Of a stretch of DNA of 64,000 nt, positions 25,085 through 53,140 are shown in pieces. Numbering within the stretch: the stretch's first letter is position 1; every line of letters starts with the position of its first letter. The notes under the pieces are model-generated. The model saw only the letters and a list, made by a program, of their open reading frames with translations, ran no database searches and was not told where the DNA came from. Source of the stretch: a virus (Duplodnaviria; Caudoviricetes); the IMG/VR virus record IMGVR_UViG_3300021514_000002, positions 96,001 to 160,000 of that record, one strand, 5' to 3'. The translations under genes were made by a program, and so were the position numbers.

Positions 25085-26722
<1,638 letters not shown>

Positions 26723-38579: not shown

Positions 38580-39260
38580 GCGTCTTCCTTGTTTCGCGTC
38601 TTATGTTAATTTTCCATTCGTTAGAATTTAACTCTGTAACGCTAGGTCTATAATTATTACCTGTTTCATCAGCTATAGTATTATGCAATAAATGGATATA
38701 CTGGTGTGGTTTCCAATAAGATAGTGTAACTTCTTTTTTATCAAAAACTAGTGTTAACGCTTCATCAAATTTCATTATCGTTCTTCTTTGGTTTAGGGGT
38801 GTTATAATAAAGCTTCTTATTACAATGAATACAGTGTGTAAAATTTACAACACCAAAAAATTCAGAATCGTACTTCTTATCGCTTTCGTGCCAACCAATA
38901 AAACATAGTATTTTCGTAGGTAGTTTCATCTTAATATTATAACCTAATCCTAATAAGTTGTCAAGTCTTGCCTAACTCATCACGGTTCGTCCTTATTGAA
39001 ATATTCAAACGCAGCATTACATACAGCTTCGTTGATTGTTTCTTCTTCTTCATACATTATTTGCATTAAAGCACCCCAATCATCCCAAGTTAAACTTTCT
39101 TTCAGCTTCTCCATTATCTCAACCATTTGGTCGTTGTTTGTTAATGGGTAGTATCTGCTGCCACCAAACGTTGGCGAACCTAAATATAATATTCCGTCCG
39201 TAGTGATATAGTTAGGGAAAAGTTCCATCCCTTCTGCAATCACTTTTAACTGTTCTGGTT

Positions 39261-39857: not shown

Positions 39858-40702
39858 TAATTACCTCCAATAGGTAATAATTACATCCCAAAATGTAGAA
39901 TAGTTCTTTTTGTTCCAATGGAATGTTCATACAATAGCCATCGCGTCATCAAAATTGTTTGAACCCATATTAACCATATCAAATTGTGCTGCAACAAATT
40001 CTATTGCAAATTTAGTGGCAAACGTACAATCATAACCCATTGGGTTATCATCAGGTTTAAGTGATATGACTTTTGATTCACCTATTGACCATATCCGAAC
40101 CCTATATTCTTTTCCTTTAGTAAATCGCCTATTACCAAATTGTTCATTAAAATGGTCATATTTTGCTATAAGAATATCACCCGTTTTAAGGTTTTCTACT
40201 TCTGCTCTTAACATATTATCCTTTTACTTTTTGTACAAACATTTGCTTAACTTCAGTTAAGTGTTTAATCCAAACATCAACAGACTCTTCATTTAAAAAT
40301 GTGATATTCAACACCTCAATATTGGTTGGCATTTCACCGCCTTCGACGGGCAACCCAACTTCGCCCTTACCATTATTACCAACTGATAGACAGGGAACAT
40401 CGCCAAGCAATCCCGAGTGGACTGCAAATTTTCCTTCACCACATTCAATTCTTAAACTTTCCACGGTGTTTTCAGGCTTATAGCGTACGCTCATATATGA
40501 TAATTCTTCACATGCTTCTTCAACACTTTCGTACATATCCCAATCAAAGTCTTCCCATCCTGTAAATGTATAAACCTGTAATTCTTCACCATATCTTAAA
40601 CTTCTCATTCCAATTTCCCATTGCGCTTGTTAATTAAATATTAATTGTAATCTAATTCTTTTAATGTGTCAAGGACTAAACATCGTAGACAATTACACGG
40701 CT

Positions 40703-42079
40703 TTATATTAATTTTACAATTTTTGATTCTATTTTTTCTACGCATTGTTTTAAAACATATTCAGGATCGCCTATATTATCCATTATAATAGCTTGTAATG
40801 TTGCAGGTGCCATATGTTTATTAAATTCTATAAACGATGGTATTACAAAATCAGGATAAAAATTATCAAAAAATCCCTTAAAACAATCATGTGTTAAATA
40901 TCCAATTTCAACACTTATATTGAACCTACCTCTGCGTGTCAGTGCAGAATCTAACTGGTTTATGTGATTTGTAGTCGCAATCAATATTCGACCATCAGAT
41001 GCCATTATACCATCTATTACATTTAATAATCCAGATAATGATAACATTGAAAATTCCTCGCTATTTTGTTCATCATTGCTATCTCTACTTTTAGTTACTG
41101 AATACGTATCAATATCTTCTATTAATAATAAAGAATTTCTAGGTAAAAGAGCGAGAGCTTCTTCTAATGTGTCATCCCTTATACCAGATAAACTTAAAAT
41201 GTACAGGGGTTTTTCAAATTTATCGCATAACGCTCTAACTAAAGACGTTTTCCCCGTACCAGGCATACCATATAAAATTACCCCTGTGCGGTAGGGAATC
41301 CCATGTTTCATATACCATTCCCGACTATTTAAAAACGTATCTATATGTTCGACTATTTCATTTTTCGTTTCTTTTGGTAAAATAACTGAACTGAATTTTC
41401 GTCGAGGTTGTCTAGCGTAAGATTTCCAATAACCATCTTTGTTGCCATTCCATTTGTATATTTGGGTCAAGTCCTTATCTACTTTTTTAGGGGTAATTTC
41501 AATAAGTAGTTGATGAAACTTTATTTGGGATCTTCCAAATGTAGTTAAATATATAGATTCTTTAACTTCTTTCGTATTATTGGCGTCTTTTAGTTCCCTG
41601 ACAAATCTAAATGGTTTCCCATCAAACATGAAATAATGAGTACCATATCCAGATGATATATCTAATCCACGGTCAGATGTATCACCATACCAAGAATAAA
41701 TTTGATTTTTTGCTACAAGAGTTCTGGATTTTGAACTTCGGCCAGTAGTATGGTACCAACGTAAAAAATTATCATAGACATCATCTACGTTGTTTAATGT
41801 CAATGTTACTGTCGTTTGTTTTACTACCATTTCCCAAATTGATTTTGGAATTCCCCGTGCAAAAAATGAAGCTGACCCTAATGCCCAAAGACTTATTGCG
41901 CCTGCGACCATAGGATTTTGTTTATTTAACCATACAAACAACGAACTTCCAATTAATTTAATATTGTCAAAACTCGTATAAGTGTAATATATTAATAAAC
42001 ATATCATACTTAATAACAATACAATGATTACGTTTATACGCGAAAATAACTTAATTTCATTTGTCTGCATTTTTAACAC
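40703..42079 (-). CDS. BCS1-like membrane-anchored AAA+ ATPase
   Basis: N-terminal TM segments, GMPGTGKTS Walker A, LLIEDID Walker B, LLNVIDG and LDSALTRRGRF. Confidence 0.85.
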   Translation of the reverse strand: MLKMQTNEIKLFSRINVIIVLLLSMICLLIYYTYTSFDNIKLIGSSLFVWLNKQNPMVAGAISLWALGSASFFARGIPKSIWEMVVKQTTVTLTLNNVDDVYDNFLRWYHTTGRSSKSRTLVAKNQIYSWYGDTSDRGLDISSGYGTHYFMFDGKPFRFVRELKDANNTKEVKESIYLTTFGRSQIKFHQLLIEITPKKVDKDLTQIYKWNGNKDGYWKSYARQPRRKFSSVILPKETKNEIVEHIDTFLNSREWYMKHGIPYRTGVILYGMPGTGKTSLVRALCDKFEKPLYILSLSGIRDDTLEEALALLPRNSLLLIEDIDTYSVTKSRDSNDEQNSEEFSMLSLSGLLNVIDGIMASDGRILIATTNHINQLDSALTRRGRFNISVEIGYLTHDCFKGFFDNFYPDFVIPSFIEFNKHMAPATLQAIIMDNIGDPEYVLKQCVEKIESKIVKLI

Positions 42080-42891
42080 TGTACTTTCCTAAAATCGTTT
42101 TCTGTAGCTGCGGTTATTAGTCATTTTAATGATTTGAATCCTATAAACCCGCCAAGGAGGAGACCAACAATAGCACCATAATTACCAAAAATGGAAACGA
42201 AAAGAATCCCACCACCCATGGCTGTTGCTATTGTTGTATTATGTGATAATTTTGCAAAGAATGACATGTTTTTAACACGCTTCGCCTGTCTTAGCAGTCC
42301 AACTCCGTGCCAATGTTTCCACCTCTACGTTTGGTGTAAATTTGCCCGTTTCTACAAAAATCCAAAAACCTGCGTATGGCTTCTGAACTTCTAGGCGGTT
42401 TGTCTTTTTCCACCATAACATCCCTGTTTCTACATCTACCAAAGCATGATAGATATAATTTAAATAAGAGTTGCCCGTTGTTTTCGTTAATTCAAAATTT
42501 GTAATTTTCATTGTATCCCCCTTTTATGCGTTAAGTGTAAGTTAATTCAGGGATAATGTCAAGACTTTAACCTAAAACCGCTTCAGGTTTCTAGACAATA
42601 CCACTGGCCTCGGCTTCAAGCAATACCAATATTCCCTTAGCCGTAATTGTAGGATGTGTCATGAATGCCTGTAGCCGTTCACTGCCTATATCAATCAGGT
42701 CGAGGCTGGCCAATGAAAAAAGCTCGTCAAAGCTACAATCTGCTTTTTTGCAAATGTCCGCACCTTCCATGTCAGGCGTATCCCGTATCACACGAAGGGC
42801 AATAAATTGTTCATATCCAAGATTCATTATAACCCCTTTAAATTTAGAATTTGTAAAACAGCGAATATAATAACCTAATTGATATAAGATG

Positions 42892-43395
42892 TCAAGGCAA
42901 AACTTCATTTGACATTCCGCGAAAACGCTCTAATAAAAATAATAAAGAAGCCAACCCAAACAAAAAGTGCGCATGTCTTACTTTTGAATTCGCTTCTTTA
43001 ATTTCGCGTTCTTTGATACTACGTTGTTCTTTTAATTGTTTCCATTTTGCATAACGTTCTGGATTAGATGTTACCCACTTAAATTGATTATGTGATATTG
43101 TTGCGCGTTTACTATTGCAACCATTACATGCACAAGCTATATTAGACTTATGAAGCGTGCCACCTTGCGATCTCGGTAATAAGTGTTCTATGGTAGCAGT
43201 ACGGTGAAATACTTTATGAAATATTTTACGATCAGTCTCAAACCACAAATTCATTTCTCTTTCACACCAATAACATTTACCATCTTGTTTTTCGTATAGG
43301 TTTTTAAGTCGGCGCATATTACTCGACATCTTGAACGTTTTCTTACCAAGTTCAATCTGTAACATGAAATCACGTTGAAATGTAATACCACACAT
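42892..43395 (-). CDS. HNH endonuclease
   Basis: CYWC...TIEHLLPRSQGG...NIACACNGCN. Start probably near MLQIELG or MSSN. Confidence 0.8.
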   Translation of the reverse strand: MCGITFQRDFMLQIELGKKTFKMSSNMRRLKNLYEKQDGKCYWCEREMNLWFETDRKIFHKVFHRTATIEHLLPRSQGGTLHKSNIACACNGCNSKRATISHNQFKWVTSNPERYAKWKQLKEQRSIKEREIKEANSKVRHAHFLFGLASLLFLLERFRGMSNEVLP

Positions 43396-43424
43396 AAACT
43401 GTACCCCTTTATTAACTTGAATAC

Positions 43425-43453
43425 ATTATACGTAATTGTAACCTAATTGTCAA
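43425..43453 (-). promoter_or_regulatory. Consensus sigma70 promoter for the HNH gene
   Basis: TTGACA-attaggttacaattacg-TATAAT. Confidence 0.8.
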
Positions 43454-43512
43454 ATAATATTTCACAGTAAGTGTCATAATAAATTCAAAATATAACCAAT
43501 ATTTTCTTTTTG

Positions 43513-44022
43513 TTTGCCTTCTGCCTATACGGCAGTGAACAACTTTGAAGCTATCAAGCTTTTAAGTATTAACTTCTAAGCTGCCTATACGGCAGTGAAC
43601 CTAATAATGTAGCAGTAATTGTTTTGTCGTTCCTTCTAAGCTGCCTATACGGCAGTGAACATGACACAACAGCGAATACACTCGTCTATGTTTCTTCTAA
43701 GCTGCCTATACGGCAGTGAACTGATAGCCGCATACCTAGTGGGTTTTTTGAAAGCTTCTAAGCTGCCTATACGGCAGTGAACATACCATTGGATAGTGGA
43801 ACGGAAAGAGGCACCTTCTAAGCTGCCTATACGGCAGTGAACCTTCCCATACTTCCAACACTTTTAGTTTCGCACTTCTAAGCTGCCTATACGGCAGTGA
43901 ACGATAGAACCTATTCCAGTTATTCCAGTTAATCCTTCTAAGCTGCCTATACGGCAGTGAACATTAGTTACCCATAGGTCTTCTGCACTTGACGCTTCTA
44001 AGCTGCCTATACGGCAGTGAAC
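43513..44022 (-). CRISPR. Type I-F CRISPR array: 8 identical 28-nt repeats plus 1 degenerate trailer repeat; 8 unique spacers (32-33 nt)
   Basis: Repeat GTTCACTGCCGTATAGGCAGCTTAGAAG at 43573, 43633, 43694, 43755, 43815, 43875, 43935 and 43995. Degenerate copy at 43513-43540. Confidence 0.98.
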
Positions 44023-44155
44023 AGGGTGAATTTTACTAAAAACTTAACCAAAACAAACGGTTATAGCGTTTTATACTATTTGACCAATAAAAATCATGTG
44101 ATTCATAACGTATTGATAATGTTAACATTTTATAAATAAAATATTTCATTGGTCA
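44023..44155 (-). promoter_or_regulatory. CRISPR leader with IHF sites and inverted repeats
   Basis: Perfect WATCAANNNNTTR at 44106-44118, near match at 44051-44063, and a 12-bp inverted repeat (44081-44092/44144-44155). Confidence 0.7.
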
Positions 44156-44704
44156 AAACCAAGGTATAGTGGCATTTTTACTTAAACCAAAGCAATCAAA
44201 TTGTCCGACAGTTTGAACTTTTGTTAATTCTCCAAAAGTCAAATATCTGCGATGTTTATGTTTATTAGAATTACTTACTAATTCCATATATGGTTCATCA
44301 AGCCCATGGTTAAACATTTTATTTTTATACAATTTTATATCAGCAGTGGATATTGAGTTTCTTTTAATTAACCGTCGTAATTTAGCTTCAGTCATATTAG
44401 ATTGCTTACGAGAAATTATTCTATAAAGGCCGTTATCTGGTACTTTACGTATAATACCAATTAAACAATATTGCGCCAAATTGCCCAACCATTTAGTATT
44501 TTGGAAGTTTGTTAGTTCGTTTTCATTACCATGAATTCTTAACGTTTTCCCAAGTACTATATTATAATCAGGGAAACTAACGCCAATATTAGATGATTTT
44601 AACGAAAACAATCTCCAATGAAATTTAGTATAAACTTCATTAAGTAATACATTTTGACGAAATTTCTTATTAGGTTGTATTAATATATCGATATAATGTT
44701 TCAT
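44153..44704 (-). CDS. cas6f: Cas6f (Csy4) crRNA-processing endoribonuclease
   Basis: YIDI...IGVSFPDY...LRIHG, RRLIKR, and terminal FDCFGLSK.ATIPWF. The canonical catalytic His position reads FHWRL. Confidence 0.93.
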   Translation of the reverse strand: MKHYIDILIQPNKKFRQNVLLNEVYTKFHWRLFSLKSSNIGVSFPDYNIVLGKTLRIHGNENELTNFQNTKWLGNLAQYCLIGIIRKVPDNGLYRIISRKQSNMTEAKLRRLIKRNSISTADIKLYKNKMFNHGLDEPYMELVSNSNKHKHRRYLTFGELTKVQTVGQFDCFGLSKNATIPWF

Positions 44705-45720
44705 TAGTTTCTCCTTGGACGAGTATCAATATTAGAGACATAAGCCAAGCCTTTTTTACCCAAAGGGAAACTTGACACGCCAGCATTTTCAATCATAGTT
44801 TTTATTTCTGTTGCGTCTTCACGATTAATATCTATATAAATTTCAAGTGTTCCACTGGCTTTGGTTAGCATTGAAACTACTTCACCTTCACCTTTTATTC
44901 TTTCTTTTCGGATATACGGATTACCATATATTTTCTTTTTTTCCCCCGTGGTAAAACGATCCATAAAATCTTTTTTTGTAAAAAGACGTTTAGATATACC
45001 AGATATAACGCCTGTTTTGGTAATAGCGGTAGATATATCAAATGATTCGGAAAGTCTATTTAATTGCAAATAAATGGCAGAACAATATACATTTTCAATA
45101 ACAATTTCGCCTTTATTATTAACATAATTAGTGTCATTAAATTGTGTATCTAAATATTGTATGACTTTTTTTGCCTTACCTTGAACTATAATAGATTTAA
45201 TCTTTCTTAATTCATCAAACTTTTCACAAATTACAATCGGATCAAGTTTAATTAATTTGTCTACTTTGGTATCATCTAAAATGAAAGAATATAATTCATC
45301 AGTATCTAATGCTAATACCCCCCATAATTCTTGTGAATAATCTGATTGAAAAATAACGTCATCGGTCTTAATCATCCCTGTAAAAGAATTTTGATCAGTA
45401 CTGCCTGAAATATTTCGAATATAAGTCATTTCATTAGTTAATTCTGGATTATCCATAAATGTAACTAACTTTTCAATGTCTCGGAAATAATAATCACTTG
45501 TGCTACGGGAATGGTATAACTTTCTTTGATCACCAATAAGACGATTAATTACCCCCATCACAGTATTCAGTGTGATTTCCCGACGAATAAAATTCTTCGA
45601 GGTCTTTAAATTGGTCATTGAAGCAATAAATTTACGCCCCTTTTTAGGTAATGCCACATTATTGTCGCCATCCAGAAACGAATTTCTCCACGATGAATCA
45701 TAATTAATTAATATTTTCAT
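44704..45720 (-). CDS. cas5fv: Cas5fv (type I-F2 Cas5)
   Basis: [42 protein letters not shown] and [10 protein letters not shown] resemble Shewanella-type Cas5fv as recalled; length 338 aa. Confidence 0.9.
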
Positions 45721-45729
45721 ATAAACACC

Positions 45730-46677
45730 CTATTTGGCGTAGAAATAAGATGCAAATTCAGATTCAGGCATCTCCGAGATTTCAGCTTCATTGCGCTTAA
45801 TACGCATCATTTTATTACTATCATTGTAATCAATTAAAATTTCATCAACATACATATATGATTTTGCTTGACGGATAGATAGTTCACTGATCATTTGTAA
45901 AGTGTATTCAATTAACGCTTTTATTGCATCATTATTTAATAAAATACCTACTTCACCCTCTTCAAATATTGTACCTTCACGCACATAGTTCTCATGAAAG
46001 ATAGCCATTGAATTTAATTCAGGATTAAGTGATTTAATATAATTTTGAATAGTTTTCGCAATTGTTTCACCTTCACCCTCTTTGATGGTCATGCTTGCCC
46101 TGCCAAATTTATTATCAAGTGAGATGAATTGTAATTGTTCGATACTAATGGAACCGTAAGAGAGATATTTAGTATCACCAAACGTAGTCTTTGAAAAGAA
46201 CGAAGAGCTATCACGCTCACCAGCTTGTGTCATTTGTTCAAAATTTCCATTGCCTAATTGGTCTACAAAATCTTCCATTAATAACGGGCTGGTTCGTTTA
46301 CGTTGACTAGAGGGTACAACGTAACCACGAATTAATCCTGTCATAGAGGCAAGTACTTCTAATAAGTTATTTTTCGCGGCGTAATGCAAGTCAAATGCTT
46401 GATCACGAAATAAATGATGTCTAACACAGTTTTGACTAATATATAAAGGATTTTCTTTGAAATCAATATCGGTAGCTTCCTTTTTATATTTGTAACCTGT
46501 TTCATCTTTGATCTTTCCTGTTAAATTAGAATAACCACGCAATTTTGGCATTGTATGATTGTTAAAGGTTTTCCCATCATTACCTGTTAAGGTTGTTGGT
46601 CCATTCCAATTAACAACACCGTGTCCTAACGCCGTAATCTTAAAATCAACACTTTTGATGCCTGTTACTTTTTTCAT
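45730..46677 (-). CDS. cas7fv: Cas7fv (type I-F2 backbone)
   Basis: [38 protein letters not shown], and terminal YFYAK; 315 aa. Confidence 0.92.
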
Positions 46678-46681
46678 TTTT

Positions 46682-49267
46682 TCACCCTATTAATATATTT
46701 GAAATTGAACCAATCGGCTGCTTGTCACAAATTGCATAATAAATAGCTGATTGATGTGCTTTTTGTTCGCCACCAATGGCGTTCAAATCTTCTTTTGTGT
46801 AACTTAGATAAATTGGTGTATCTGGATTTCGTGCAGCATTTAATAATATATCTTCATTATACGTTTTTTTCGTTTTTTTGATATTATGATGTTTAGTTAA
46901 CATATATGATAACAGATTATTCTCAGCATTACCATACCCTTTTATTAACCCAACACTTGCTGTTAATCCTATTGTAGTTTGGGTATGATCAGTGTCTTCT
47001 GTATAAGCATACTCATTTGGAAATTCATATTTTTTCGAATTTACTACGCGGCAAATTGCCATTTGTACAAATCTGTTATCACCACGTAAAGAATTATTTT
47101 TAATTTTACTCGTCTGCTTGTTTAATGAAACTTTTTTATGAGGGTAAAATAATGGATCTATTATATTTTGGTTTATAAGTGTTGCACTGTCTTTTAACAT
47201 TAATAATAATTCTTCTTTAATTTCGTTTAAAGATATTTCGTCCTTATAGAATTTTTTATATAACGCATAAAGATAATTAATATCAACAACATTACTGTTA
47301 ACATTGGAACATAAAAAATTATACCATGCTTTAGTGCTTTTTAATAAATTCTGCGTTCTTAAAAACCAACCGGTTTGTCCATTATCTATATTTTCAGGTA
47401 CTACCGTAAGGTATTCATTGATTGTGTTATTTTTACCAAAACGATCTAAACGACCTAACCGCTGTAACCAATTCTCTGCGGTTGTTAATTCTGTTATCAT
47501 GTTATCGCAGCTAATGTTTAATGAGGATTGAATGATAGGTCCACTACGCATTATATCGAATTCACTATTACCACCTTCCTTGAAATTATCCATAATCGTA
47601 TTAAATAATGAAAGTTTATCAGCTTTTTTGAATTTAGAATGAAACAATATACCATTTTCTTGATGCATATTTTTAATAAAACCGAGTTGTGCAGTAATTG
47701 CGGTATTACTAATCACAAACGTATTCTTTTTGAATATTTTTTGTGTTAATAATGAATTATTCACATCATCAATTTTAAAATTTACACGATATTTAGATTT
47801 GTTAAAGCTTTTAATATCAAATATATCACTTGAATCAATTTTTAAGACTTTATTCACAAAATAGTAATTGGGTGTAGCAGATACCAATAATGTATTTGCC
47901 TTATCTCCTTGTAACTTTTTGTTTTCAATTAGTTCTGCAAACAACAAATTAAAGGCTGGCATTGTAATTAATTCATGATATTCATCGAAAATGACATGTG
48001 AATTCATTAAAGTTATTAATGCAGTTATATCAGAATGTGTGGTAATTGTGTTTATCGCGTGATCTATCGTAGTAATAACAATATCCCCTGTGAACATATT
48101 ATGTTCTGCGGTTTCCTGCTCAATGCCATTAGTTTTTGTATTTTTGTACTCACCTGTATAAATTTCTATTCGACTGTTTTTTAAATAATCCAATTGTGAC
48201 AGATCGTGATATAGTCCAAGACACACGTTTACCCGAGGAGCTATCCATATAATTTTCTTAACATTACTGTTGAATGCCCATTCTAGGGCAATTTTAGTTT
48301 TACCACAACCCGCTGGCCCTTCAAGAACTGCAATATCGTTAACATCTTGACATTGTTTTGCCACTACCGCTTGTGCTTTGTTTTGTTGACTATCTGGGTA
48401 TAATATAGTAAAGCCTTCAAGACATTGCGCTATTTCAGTTTGAAGCGTACTATTATTATCCAAATGTTTATTGGTTAAAAAGTTTAAACTTTTATCGTTT
48501 ATACGTGTTGTCAATTCACAAGCTGAAAGTGTTGACACAATTCTATCAGCAGTTATAATAGCAGCCCTGATGATATTTTTATCAGCGTTTTCTTTAATTT
48601 CCCTAGTATAATCATCAATAATATCATTGTTTTCCGAATATTCTTTATAAAGGAGATTTTGTTTTTTTAAAGCGTATACAGCATCCTCAGTTATATCCGT
48701 TACTCGTTTCGGTAATTTGATAACATTATTAGAATAAGTTAAGAGTGAAGAATTTACACTTTCCAATATTTGACTGGCTTCTTTTAGAAATAATTCCATA
48801 TTCATATCAGCATTAAAAGAATTATTGACTTTATTGTAAATTTCAGCTTGATTTTTGTAATTATTCTTTCTTATAGGTTTACTGTGATGCCAGTAAATAC
48901 CATGTGTCGCATAATCAAATTGTTTTGGATTTAATCTTTTATCATTTCGATCATTTAGTAAATTAAATAGAAATAGTGAAATTTCGTTGTGTCTTGGATG
49001 CTTTTCAAAAGAAAATTTGCCCCTGTTGATATGTACCCCATCATTAACATCCACTGCTTTTGAACGAGAGTTTAACCAGTTTTGAAATGCAGGATCTAAT
49101 TTACCGATGTCGTGGAAGCAACCCGCCACCAATGTAGCATATGCTAATTTACTATTATTAGTAAGTTTATTAACAATATCATATCCAATCCACCCAACAG
49201 CAAATAAATGATCGGCAAGTAAATGTTGTTTATCATTAGCATAATATGATATTAAATTATTGGTCAC
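46682..49267 (-). CDS. cas3: Cas3 HD nuclease-SF2 helicase without N-terminal Cas2 domain
   Basis: HLLADH at about residue 15, [21 protein letters not shown] and QRLGRLDR motifs. Confidence 0.92.
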
Positions 49268-49303
49268 TATTCTGAGTATCCTACTTCTGTTTAAGTTGAC
49301 AAT

Positions 49304-49332
49304 ATTATAACCTAATTCTAATAAGTTGTCAA
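49304..49332 (-). promoter_or_regulatory. Consensus sigma70 promoter of the cas operon, containing the AATTAGGTTA box
   Basis: TTGACA-acttattagaattaggt-TATAAT, 36 nt upstream of the cas3 start. Confidence 0.85.
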
Positions 49333-49601
49333 GCCATGACTAATTCATTTTCAACTTGTTTTAATTTCTGATGATTATCAATGCGCATTAGGTTCTTTTC
49401 AGACTGTACATATACACCGCTTTCAGAATACCTTCCACCATACCTATACAATGTAAGTTGAAGAACATCTACCTCCCACAAATCAACAGCTATTAAATCG
49501 TCTAATCCACCTAAAAAATTACCCACTGTCACACACTTACCAATATTTTCAGGGCGTCCACTATTAATCACTAAGGCCAATCAACCTTTTTCTATTTTCA
49601 T
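49329..49601 (-). pseudogene. Small phage gene interrupted by an in-frame TGA at codon 7
   Basis: SD AAGGAAG then MKIEKG*LALVINSGRPENIGKCVTV. Confidence 0.5.
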
Positions 49602-50666
49602 TTTAACTTCCTTTATAAACAATACACAATAATATCATATATTACCTATTAAGGTCAAGGATTAAAGAATAGCCATAGCATAGCCGTACCTGTCAATTCC
49701 CAACATTTCACTTGACAATTAGGTTATAATGTTATATGATTACTACATACCAACTTTTAAGGATTAAATAATGCCAGCTTATAATATATCTAAAACGTTA
49801 GAACTTGTTGCTTATTATGACGCTGATTACGGTTCGCCCACTATTCGGGAATTGTTTACCGCAAGTTTGTGTTCAGGTATTAAACCTTTCATGTTAGATA
49901 AGAATACTCCTGCCTTTGATTATAATGAATTACTTGAAACTTTCTGGATTCATATGGTTTATCCAGTATCAGATTCATCATTACAAATTCATATTAGTTC
50001 TATACTGGACAGTCTGTTCTATGCCCATTATATTAGTGGGAGTCAAGATCAAGACGGTAATCTGGATATTGATAGTTGTGATCTTCTTGAAGTAGGTGAA
50101 GTAGTAGCAGAATTACTTATTGAATTTTGTGCATGTAATGAACCTTATGTAGTACAATCTACAGATCATCATCAGTGGTTCAACCATTAACCACATGATG
50201 AATAAGGGTATTATATAACATGGTTAAACGTAACTCTGTATTTAATATAGAAGTACCACATTTAGCGATGCTTTTATTTGAATTGTATGAATATGATAAA
50301 GTTGATATTGATGCTTTTGCTAATGACGTAAAGAAACATATATTGCCAAAAAATGACAAGACTAACATTAATGATATTGTACATAGAATTAGAAATAAAT
50401 CACATGTAGATAAAATAGATTTACCAAAAGGATATTATGTAAGATCTGATGGACAATTAAATACTTTTTGGTTGGATAAATCATACACGTATATGCAATA
50501 CGAAACTAGTAGATGGGGGTATAGTTGGACGCGAAAACAAATACTACAAATAAACAATTTCGTTAAAAATAATGGATGGCAGATAATTACAGTCATACTC
50601 ATTATTATAGGTATTATTCGCAAATAACCTAATTCTTATAAGATGTCAAGCCTTAAAGACTTCAAT

Positions 50667-51410
50667 TCAAATTTCGTAACTATCATATAGTTGGGTATGT
50701 AAATCCTCCAACATAGAAACCATACAATCTAATCGGATATCAGACTTTGATGTTTCACGCAAGGTCTTGACATCCAGTAGGATTTCAGCACTCAGCACCC
50801 GCTTGTTCTTTAATGTAGTCACTTTAAAGAATGTGCTAACCAAGCCACTATCCCTAACATATTCATTATGCTTCAAAAAATCAGCCGCTGATTTTTTGTC
50901 TGTAAAATTGACAATAAACCGCTTCCCGCTTCCCTCTACATAATTACAGACATCATCACACATAATTTCGTTTAAGTAATATAGGTTAGCATAGTTCTCA
51001 CGATGGATATCATTCAAGGCTTTTTCCACTGTAATATAGGGGGGTATGTTAATAGGAGTTCTTGTATTTTTAGCAACAACGTTCTTTGGTTTAAACTTAT
51101 ATAAGAAGGGGAAATGTCCTATGATTCCCAATAATTCCGTCTGGCGAATAATTAAGTCTTTGGCAACTTTGAATATGGCTATGTCAAACCATTCAGTATG
51201 GCCATCGCCTTTATATATCCTTGTATTGTATTCTTTGAAATGTAGATGGCAGAAGTTTTCTACAGCTGTCGCGTTTTCGCATTCAAACATATAGGTTTTA
51301 TCATAGTTAATTTCCCCAACTACGGTGACTAGTCTTGATCTAGGGTTATTAGAAAACCCAATCTTGAAAGCGGTTTTTTCAACATTAGGGGCAAAGTATA
51401 GGTATGACAT
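50667..51410 (-). CDS. GIY-YIG-like (T5orf172/MUG113) domain protein
   Basis: YLYF..FKIGFSNNPRSRL..VE..CH..F..Y...GHTEWF. Confidence 0.75.
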   Translation of the reverse strand: MSYLYFAPNVEKTAFKIGFSNNPRSRLVTVVGEINYDKTYMFECENATAVENFCHLHFKEYNTRIYKGDGHTEWFDIAIFKVAKDLIIRQTELLGIIGHFPFLYKFKPKNVVAKNTRTPINIPPYITVEKALNDIHRENYANLYYLNEIMCDDVCNYVEGSGKRFIVNFTDKKSAADFLKHNEYVRDSGLVSTFFKVTTLKNKRVLSAEILLDVKTLRETSKSDIRLDCMVSMLEDLHTQLYDSYEI

Positions 51411-51681
51411 ATCCTTAGTATATCATGAAGCCTTAAAGACTTCAAGTTTGACAATCACAATATTCCCATGGCATAGTCGTACCTGTCTTTCGTACTGTCA
51501 AAGACTTCCATCTCCAAGGCATGGGTCAATTCCCGACTACTCTTTCTGTCTGTCAATACATAGACCGTTCCATTTGTGCCCACCCGTACAGGATACGTCT
51601 GTCCCTTAGTAAACAATACTCTTCCACTTCCCAGACTGTAGTAGTCACATACAGCTTTTACCCTGTCACCTGTCTTGTATT

Positions 51682-52437
51682 TCATACAATAAACACCTCT
51701 AATACACTTCCCAGTTCAAACAGTATTTCATTAACATTAGGAAATAGCCATGTATTTTCCGCCTGTTTATTACCATAATGATTTAACATGTCAAATACAT
51801 GACCTGAGAAATCTGGATACCAATGGAAGATTTTAACAACATCTATCTGTTTATCCCTTAGTTCTTTCATAAGGGTACTAACACCTTGCTTGTGTATCAT
51901 TATGGAAAGAAGGTTAGGGGATTGTACGCTGGTCTTATACAGTATCAACAGTGGGTCAATATTACGATTGGCTTCAATACGATGTTTAATATCTTTGCCT
52001 AAGAAGTTCTTCCAGCCCCCATTGACATAGAAAGAAGGGTAACGTCGGGCAGGATTTTTAGGGATTCCTTTAGGGATTAGACCATCGTCAAAGGCTTCTT
52101 TATACTGATCAACGTTTTTAAATTGCATCGTTTGTATTAGATTTACCGCCTCCCAATATTTCATAAGATCTTTTTCACGTACAGCTTTAGGACTATCTGC
52201 ATCGTAAACATTGTCAGTTTCAAGGAATGTTTTCCAGTCTATCCATTCAGGATATACCCTTTCTGGTCGTGTGGGAATACCCCCAGGTTTATAGTCACGT
52301 ACCCATGCACGATACTGGCGAAAGGTTTTAATCCCTGCCATATTAGTTAAGTCTTTACACATATGATAAGGTATCCACCTCCAGTCCATGGGTTTACTCT
52401 TTAGGACTATCTTAGGGATGGTTGTTTTCTTACCCAT
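51682..52437 (-). CDS. Protein with two 'integrase repeat'-like units
   Basis: GIPTRPERVYPEWIDWKTFL and GIPKNPARRYPSF...GWKNFLG repeats. Confidence 0.55.
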   Translation of the reverse strand: MGKKTTIPKIVLKSKPMDWRWIPYHMCKDLTNMAGIKTFRQYRAWVRDYKPGGIPTRPERVYPEWIDWKTFLETDNVYDADSPKAVREKDLMKYWEAVNLIQTMQFKNVDQYKEAFDDGLIPKGIPKNPARRYPSFYVNGGWKNFLGKDIKHRIEANRNIDPLLILYKTSVQSPNLLSIMIHKQGVSTLMKELRDKQIDVVKIFHWYPDFSGHVFDMLNHYGNKQAENTWLFPNVNEILFELGSVLEVFIV

Positions 52438-53140
52438 TATCAGGATTCCATGTATTACCTTTTTGAAGGTTTTCAGAAGCGGTTATAATTTGTAGGTTAT
52501 ATTCAACATGAAGTCCACAGACATTCACACCTTGTAATGGAACAATATGGTCAACGTGAAATATTTCATTACCACCAGCGATTCTGGTACAAATATTTAA
52601 ATCTTGACAATCTTCATAAATGTCATGGATTATTTTTATATTTGACCATATTGGTCTGGCTTGTATTCTCCATGCTCTACGAGAAGCACAGTATGCATTA
52701 TTTTGTGCTTTATTATTTTGTCTATATAATCGTTGTTGTTTATTAAGATGGTTTTTGTTGTGTTTTTTGTATTTTCCACTACACAATTTTATCTTATCAC
52801 GATTACATATATTATATTCTTTATTGTATTCGGATATTTTTTCGTAATTCTGTTCAACATATTTTTTATGTTGTTTGTTCACTTCCTTCTTGTTATTCTG
52901 ATACCATTCTTTTTGTTGCATCATTAAATATTCTTTATTCTTATTTCTATATCCTTTATTGTATTGTGCTATTTTTTTCTTATTATTTGCCTTATATTGT
53001 TTATCATATGTTTTACTACATCCCGCACAACAACCATTAATCACTCTTCTTTCAGTAATATGTCCTTGGGGACATTCTTTTCCTGTAAAGTACCAAATTA
53101 AACCTGTTTCTTTTGCTTCTTTTCTTGTTATCACTTTCAT
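52430..53140 (-). CDS. HNH-family protein, paralogue of 63481..63987
   Basis: RKEAK..GL..YFTGK.C..GH N-terminus and HVDHIVPLQG.NVCGLH..YNLQ C-terminus. Confidence 0.8.
   Translation of the reverse strand: MKVITRKEAKETGLIWYFTGKECPQGHITERRVINGCCAGCSKTYDKQYKANNKKKIAQYNKGYRNKNKEYLMMQQKEWYQNNKKEVNKQHKKYVEQNYEKISEYNKEYNICNRDKIKLCSGKYKKHNKNHLNKQQRLYRQNNKAQNNAYCASRRAWRIQARPIWSNIKIIHDIYEDCQDLNICTRIAGGNEIFHVDHIVPLQGVNVCGLHVEYNLQIITASENLQKGNTWNPDNG

Follow-up and report, generated by a model that had tools for sequence, protein, structure and literature searches.

A type I-F2 CRISPR-Cas module with no adaptation genes found in a T4-like jumbo phage of hydrothermal vents

CRISPR-Cas systems (short palindromic repeats, clustered and regularly interspaced, with CRISPR-associated proteins) without adaptation genes have been published for giant phages (Al-Shayeb et al. 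2020, PMC7162821; review PMC11656645), where the arrays have a median of six repeats (PMC7162821). A phage system that can adapt is that of Vibrio phage ICP1, of type I-F, which comprises Csy1-4, including Cas8f, together with Cas1 and a Cas2/3 fusion, and which targets the phage-inducible chromosomal island-like element (PLE) satellite (PMC10161043). The type I-F2 (I-Fv) system is represented by that of Shewanella putrefaciens CN-32, for which a Cas3f2 truncated of its Cas2 domain has been made and its structure solved on the Cascade complex (PMC12956352). Adaptation-less CRISPR in giant phages is thus already known, and type I-F2 modules with neither Cas2 nor Cas1 are found in bacteria too. 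Here we describe a locus lying in a window of 64,000 nucleotides (nt), bases 96001-160000 of the IMG/VR record IMGVR_UViG_3300021514_000002. The whole record is 363,531 bp in length, is marked as linear and is rated complete by CheckV, and its source is a T4-like jumbo phage of hydrothermal vents. Positions below are window coordinates unless stated otherwise. We consider it probable that the locus is a functional, interference-only type I-F2 module resident in this phage.

A first-pass annotation placed cas3, cas7fv, cas5fv and cas6f, a leader and eight unique spacers at 43513-49332. All of these were found in the positions claimed, on the minus strand, and the features of the region are as follows.

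49304..49332, minus strand: promoter of the cas operon, TTGACA-N17-TATAAT, with 12/12 consensus positions
46682..49267, minus strand: cas3, 861 amino acids (aa), HD nuclease, superfamily 2 (SF2) helicase and C-terminal domain, GTG start
45730..46677, minus strand: cas7fv, 315 aa, Cascade backbone subunit (NF040577, E 8.5e-143)
44704..45720, minus strand: cas5fv, 338 aa, protospacer-adjacent motif (PAM) reader and 5' handle cap (PF20158, E 1.1e-61)
44153..44704, minus strand: cas6f, 183 aa, endoribonuclease of precursor CRISPR RNA (PF09618, E 1.7e-49; TIGR02563)
44023..44152, minus strand: leader, AT-rich, 130 nt
43513..44022, minus strand: CRISPR array, nine repeats and eight unique spacers
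42892..43395, minus strand: HNH homing-type endonuclease gene, which flanks the system without belonging to it and has a perfect consensus promoter to itself at 43453-43425
49329..49580, minus strand: 83-aa open reading frame upstream of cas3, a phage gene with a weak phrog_2529 match and no Pfam or NCBIfam hit

The intergenic gaps are 4 nt between cas3 and cas7fv and 9 nt between cas7fv and cas5fv, while cas5fv and cas6f overlap by 1 nt, so that the four cas genes form one tight operon. Type I-F2 is marked by having neither a large subunit (Cas8f) nor a small one (Cas11), and the operon is accordingly limited to these four genes with gaps of no more than 9 nt; a profile search of the whole 363,531-bp record found no Cas8f/Csy1 (PF09611). 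Cas7fv scores 475 bits against the NF040577 equivalog (cut-off 200), shows 68-82% identity to its 80 bacterial counterparts, and keeps all 130 of the columns that are invariant in the Cas7fv alignment A1. Cas5fv, which in type I-F2 contains an inserted alpha-helical domain that reads the PAM, scores 208 bits against PF20158 (cut-off 25) and matches chain F of PDB 5O6U with E 1.9e-123. Its residues Q110, N202 and K250 are the conserved equivalents of Q113, N205 and K253 in the S. putrefaciens protein, where Q113 and K253 are named as PAM readers and N205 is a further PAM residue (PMC12956352). Given this conservation, a GG PAM is predicted for the phage system. Cas6f matches chain B of 5O6U (E 1.6e-47), with H28 occupying the position of the catalytic histidine of Csy4, and it is accompanied by the 28-nt I-F hairpin repeat and spacers of about 32 nt that are expected of type I-F2.

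Cas3 comprises Cas3_HD, DEAD and Cas3-like_C_2 domains, matching TIGR01587 (E 1.8e-31) and TIGR01596 (E 9e-16), both above their cut-offs. In 80 bacterial I-F2 loci, collected with Cas7fv, the protein is mostly 965-990 aa long with PF21384, the I-F Cas2 domain, at its start. The first-pass annotation had Cas3 beginning directly with the HD domain and lacking Cas2, and the comparison bears this out: at least 70 bacterial homologues have some 101-103 additional residues at the N terminus. The closest homologue (P0001) is a Cas2-3 of 980 aa with 59% identity, whose gene adjoins that of Cas1 in what looks like a bacterial chromosome; its residue 111 is where residue 10 of the phage Cas3 falls in the alignment. 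The Cas2 domain has therefore been cleanly removed, and the phage promoter now stands in its place. As the closest relative is a Cas2-3 fusion adjoining Cas1, the module would have descended from a complete bacterial I-F2 locus through loss of cas1 and of the Cas2 domain.

The catalytic parts of Cas3 are intact, as had been proposed. Among 173 columns that are near-invariant (at least 95% conserved) in 75 bacterial homologues, 160 are kept by the phage protein (92%). The HD residues H52 D53, H79, H93 and H127 H128 are all present, as are the helicase motifs Walker A (G320-T324), DExH (D428-H431), SAT (S463-T465) and motif VI (Q602-R606). There are 12 substitutions at near-invariant positions. 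One of these is H403, the equivalent of Shewanella Q507, where a Q507A mutant is tolerated and active in vivo. Residues 8-856 align with chain A of PDB 9G44 (E 8e-215), which is a Cas2-3f2 deliberately truncated of Cas2, non-dimerising, and docked on the R-loop of I-F2 Cascade (PMC12956352). On the basis of this end-to-end alignment the phage Cas3 is the natural counterpart of that construct.

Type I-F2 loci normally have Cas1 adjoining cas2-3, and Cas2 fused to Cas3 (Cas2-3f2). Cas1 is present in 72/80 of the bacterial loci and the Cas2 domain in 75/80, and neither feature is found in the phage. Profile searches of the whole record for Cas1 (PF01867), Cas2 (PF09827) and the I-F Cas2 domain (PF21384) found none, nor did tblastn of bacterial I-F2 Cas1 and the Cas2 domain give any match to it. 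The claim that there is no cas1 in the window thus holds for all 363,531 bp, and no split locus with cas1 or cas2 elsewhere in the record was found. The possibility that the 83-aa open reading frame upstream of cas3 is a free-standing Cas2 was also weighed and was rejected, given that it has no Pfam or NCBIfam hit and there is no Cas2 signal in the record. Taken together with the gene families and the array, the lack of adaptation genes in the record supports the assignment as a phage-borne, interference-only type I-F2 module.

The array is the only one in the 363.5-kb record. Its nine 28-nt repeats are 60-61 nt apart, eight of them identical and the leader-distal one degenerate, and the eight spacers are all different and 32-33 nt long. 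This repeat-spacer pattern is not due to chance. The repeat folds into a 5-bp hairpin of the Cas6f type and belongs to a common I-F repeat family. Among 72 bacterial I-F-type leaders we find conserved positions anchored on the junction with the array (GGT, TG.T and a T-run), and the phage leader keeps several of them; these shared motifs are probably signals for integration host factor and the integrase. In these I-F-type leaders, mostly of I-F2, the distances upstream of the first repeat are about 60 nt for GGT, about 30 nt for TTGTTGTAACT and about 15 nt for the T-run.

Between the promoter of the cas operon and the start codon of cas3 there are about 37 nt. There are 27 perfect TTGACA/TATAAT sites with a spacer of 16-18 nt in the genome, where about one would be expected from base composition, and the cas3 promoter and the site at 38964 are near-copies over about 45 nt. 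It follows that the promoter is of the phage's own sigma-70 type, in agreement with its earlier description as a boxed sigma70 promoter of the phage. Several of the 27 perfect promoters share extended flanks. No terminator-like site was found in the stretch from cas6f to the array. At the start of the leader there is a weaker site resembling a promoter (44156-44127), with the sequence TTGACC-N18-TAAAAT.

Several observations place the locus on the phage. Both a major capsid protein of the T4 Gp23 type (E 7.8e-97) and a portal protein of T4 type (E 2.7e-92) are encoded on this record, and genes of phage families within the window include those for an NAD-dependent ligase and GroEL. In run X1, from a hydrothermal vent and probably the source sample, independent Logan contigs join 40500-43660, running from the phage flank into the array, and 43935-52500, covering the array, all the cas genes and the other flank. 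In X2, from a second vent study (2018), there are pieces of cas3 and of both flanks with zero differences from the phage. The contigs of X2 leave some of the cas region uncovered. One of them, at a depth of 9.8, seemingly joins 43513 to 49145 with 25 other letters between, which would be a variant without the array and most of the cas genes. This joint skipping 43514-49144 is unreliable because one side rests on only 20 letters. No RNA run is listed among those that contain the phage. The GC content at third codon positions (GC3) of the cas genes is 0.20-0.26, inside the phage background of 0.265 +/- 0.04. The GC content of the cas region is 0.30 compared with a genome mean of 0.36, and bacterial I-F2 cas genes are AT-rich everywhere.

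From these features we can suggest how the module would operate. The host sigma-70 RNA polymerase would transcribe cas3-cas7fv-cas5fv-cas6f from the consensus promoter, perhaps early in infection to judge from the promoter type, and transcription probably continues through the leader and array. By homology, Cas6f would cut the repeats at the base of the hairpin to generate CRISPR RNAs (crRNAs) with the 8-nt 5' handle CUUAGAAG. One Cas5fv, six Cas7fv and Cas6f would then assemble on the crRNA as a minimal Cascade lacking Cas8, as expected from their 50-80% identity to the solved proteins of S. putrefaciens. Cas5fv is predicted to read the GG PAM through its conserved glutamine and lysine, whereupon an R-loop would form. 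Cas3 would dock on the interface between Cas5 and Cas7 and degrade the non-target strand; docking without the Cas2 domain has been shown for Shewanella Cas3f2 (PMC12956352). The phage would be unable to add any new spacer by itself. The existing eight most likely point at competing mobile elements or at defence islands of the vent host.

Several points weigh against this explanation. For a Cas3f2 without Cas2, what is described in the available text of PMC12956352 is formation of the complex and not full interference in vivo. The cas3 start codon is GTG, and the Shine-Dalgarno-like AGGA that precedes it is, at 11 nt, rather distant. Within cas3, antisense on the plus strand, a perfect TTGACA-N16-TATAAT at 48532-48559 faces the cas3 start. 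This could be chance, with about one such site expected per genome, or it could be an antisense regulator of cas3. Lastly, no protospacer was found for any of the eight spacers in any collection searched.

The searches for targets were of several kinds. The eight spacers gave no match to the phage's own genome with the array masked (blastn-short). Against 50,697 phage records the array gave only a 25-nt chance match to a Salmonella phage (E 0.5), and against 72,556 plasmids only matches derived from the repeat. Spacers 1-4 had no match in IMG/VR when searched as patterns with every sixth base free, and spacer 1 had none in the Joint Genome Institute (JGI) metagenomes. In genomes of three orders relevant to vents (99 Thiomicrospirales, 401 Campylobacterales-order and 301 Methylococcales-order) the array found repeat matches only, in what is a weak test with two candidates scored per genome. 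A 29/33 match of spacer 3 to the bacterial locus L101 was rejected; it was gapped, ran into the repeat, and lay within an ordinary bacterial gene. The first-pass annotation had seen in the locus a weapon against rival phages, satellites or host genes. Such a role is plausible by analogy, but with 0/8 spacers matched it lacks the support of a target.

A different account of the locus has the module working as above but its memory written in trans. The Cas1/Cas2-3 integrase of a host I-F system would insert spacers into the phage array, whose repeat and leader would be host-compatible. We regard this as possible but unlikely. The 28-nt repeat is found letter for letter in 14 contigs from metagenomes, among them I-F2 loci that are complete with Cas1 and Cas2-3 (L093 and L096). 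The leader retains several of the junction-anchored positions of bacterial I-F-type leaders, but over 80 nt it is no more than 55% identical to any of them. A Cas2-less I-F2 module is found inside a complete I-F1 locus (L081 and L082). For giant phages, acquisition in trans is a published proposal (PMC7162821), and for the plasmid type IV-A3 it is reported to occur (10.1101/2023.06.23.546257).

Other 32-nt spacers lie between phage-identical repeats in contigs of both vent runs, one in X1 and at least two in X2, with a depth of about 3 (the X1 spacer) compared with 12-24. If spacers are indeed acquired in trans, these would be variants of the phage array. However, the contigs end in repeats and are not linkable to the phage, and their origin may be a bacterium that shares this repeat. 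The extra spacers are thus either variation of the phage array or part of a co-resident bacterial array. Three extra spacers taken from the runs had no match in the phage or in any of the fetched loci, and the 258 spacers of the 14 same-repeat metagenome arrays had no target in the phage (best 25/32, of low complexity). On this reading, losing Cas2 would in addition release the phage Cas3 from dimerisation and, by what is generally known of I-F systems, from the control of Cas1.

The module might instead be a frozen relic that was captured once, lost its adaptation genes, and is now neutral or decaying cargo with no useful targets. The degenerate terminal repeat would be consistent with this, as would the failure to find a close phage relative with the locus in IMG/VR scans. 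The spacers are without a match in anything searched, but matchless spacers are usual in environmental arrays. Decay would not be expected to leave four intact open reading frames with tight spacing, eight identical repeats and 92% of the near-invariant positions of Cas3. Moreover, where Cas2 would have been encoded there is now a perfect promoter of the phage type, and the pieces of cas3 are identical in a second study dated seven years earlier. We therefore judge the relic improbable, and a working interference module remains the preferred explanation.

Alternatively, the system might act in host takeover or counter-defence, either by cutting the host chromosome or a defence island, or by Cas6f and Cascade soaking up host crRNAs that share the repeat. 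The repeat is of a common I-F family, so that cross-talk with host I-F systems is conceivable, and giant-phage spacers targeting host genes have been reported (PMC7162821). On the other hand a pure decoy would not be expected to have an intact HD nuclease, and the search of about 800 bacterial genomes, weak as it was, found no spacer match. We give this explanation little credence. Finally, the record is a metagenome assembly with a lower GC content in the cas region than the genome mean, but that a bacterial CRISPR locus has been wrongly fused to a phage contig is very unlikely indeed, given that both junctions are bridged by independent contigs, the X2 pieces are identical, capsid and portal are on the record, phage genes and homing endonucleases stand immediately on either side, the cas3 promoter nearly copies another of this phage, and GC3 is in the phage range while AT-rich cas genes are general to bacterial I-F2; host contamination, raised at the outset as something that could undo the assignment, is not what we find.

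The identity of the phage Cas3 is 39-49% to those of the 80 genome loci, compared with 59% to P0001. In a tree of Cas3 the phage pairs with Thiomicrorhabdus heinhorstiae (L057) with local support of 0.99, and this pairing is given little weight, since the two branches are long and L057 does not have the highest identity to the phage protein. Among the best 120 Cas3f2 homologues, 22 lack PF21384. Three bacterial loci (L006, L083 and L086) are interference-only I-F2, with cas3 followed by cas7fv, cas5fv and cas6f, and no cas1 was found upstream of cas3 in the fetched sequence (about 7.4 kb for L006, and 10 kb for L083 and L086). In these loci and in L081 and L082 the Cas2-less Cas3 is 848-887 aa in length, and the contexts of the Cas2-less loci are chromosomal, with genes like those of non-ribosomal peptide synthetases (NRPS), ribosomal proteins and enolase. 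In the tree L006 is sister to the Cas2-bearing L003 with support of 1.0 while the phage lies with L057, and so the losses of Cas2 in the phage and in bacteria are independent.

Some of these bacterial loci have unusual arrangements. L081 (5235-19455) and L082 are composites in which cas1 and cas2-3 of I-F1 are followed by a Cas2-less I-F2 module and then by csy1-4 of I-F1. The I-F2 part consists of cas3, a cas7fv split into 104 and 210 aa, cas5fv and cas6f, so that one adaptation module is common to two sets of I-F effectors. In L085 (7803-15236) a PIN/MazE toxin-antitoxin pair stands between cas1 and a free-standing cas2 of 110 aa, followed by a Cas2-less cas3. L084 has an odd arrangement of Cas1, Cas3 and Cas2-3.

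In the phage, a T5orf172 (GIY-YIG-like) gene lies at 50667-51410 and an EndoVII/HNH gene at 52430-53140. With the HNH gene listed above, three homing-type endonuclease genes bracket the CRISPR locus, which suggests a plastic region rich in mobile genes. Further away there is a BCS1-like AAA ATPase of 458 aa at 40703-42079 on the minus strand (PF08740 BCS1_N and an AAA domain; phrog_7485, E 5e-110). The phage encodes a full-length GroEL at 25097-26722 (phrog_5725, E 5e-186). The NAD-dependent DNA ligase is at 3919-5970, and its best cultured matches, with about 40% identity, are jumbo phages of the Atu_ph07, XacN1 and Phosso type.

We have also examined how rare such a module is. A tblastn search with Cas7fv gave no match in 50,697 GenBank phages and four matches in plasmids. 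A scan of IMG/VR for the conserved motifs of the Cas7fv alignment found none elsewhere; both of these searches may omit records very close to that of the window. The exact 28-nt repeat had no match in IMG/VR, and no relative of the phage came up when IMG/VR was scanned with single proteins, namely Cas7fv and the AAA ATPase of the flank. PHROGs contains no Cas7fv family, and Cas3 has only a weak PhoH-type P-loop match in it. No phage-borne canonical I-F2 was found in the literature searched, which covers the I-F1-like system of ICP1 and the adaptation-less systems of huge phages.

With this locus the smallest type I system known is found on a jumbo phage of lytic type. It is an experiment made by nature on whether Cas3f2 can do without the Cas2 domain, and a small case in which the gain of spacers by phage arrays that lack adaptation genes could be tested. 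Its value as a tool adds little. The suggestion that it would make an attractive new compact editing tool was overstated, since type I-Fv is already in use as a compact tool for genome reduction (PMC12714560) and the Cas2 truncation has already been engineered.

It remains to set the phage module beside its closest relatives. The bacterial interference-only I-F2 loci (L006, L083 and L086) have, like the phage, a Cas2-less cas3 and the same gene order, but theirs are chromosomal. The system of S. putrefaciens CN-32 (5O6U, 5O7H and 9G44; PMC4937334, PMC12956352) has the same effector genes in the same order, with no Cas8 or Cas11. It too has an I-F repeat, which in the phage is 28 nt, and 32-nt spacers, and it shares the PAM residues of Cas5fv and the motifs of Cas3. 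The phage differs in having no cas1, and its loss of Cas2 is natural where that in Shewanella is hand-made. It differs also in being carried by a lytic-type jumbo phage, under a phage consensus promoter, with a short array of eight spacers.

The CRISPR systems described in huge phages (PMC7162821, PMC11656645) are likewise on jumbo phages, with compact arrays, no Cas1, Cas2 or Cas4, and conserved catalytic residues in their nucleases. They are presumed to be used against competing elements or the host, as we presume here. In the available text of PMC7162821 the subtypes named are a variant of I-C, II and V, with no I-F term, whereas the system found here is of canonical I-F2 type, its Cas7fv reaching 82% identity to bacterial proteins. 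The type I-F system of ICP1 (PMC10161043; Seed et al. 2013) is likewise encoded by a phage, with Cas6f, an HD nuclease-helicase of the Cas3 type and a compact Cascade. Compared with ICP1, the phage described here is without Cas8f and without an adaptation module.

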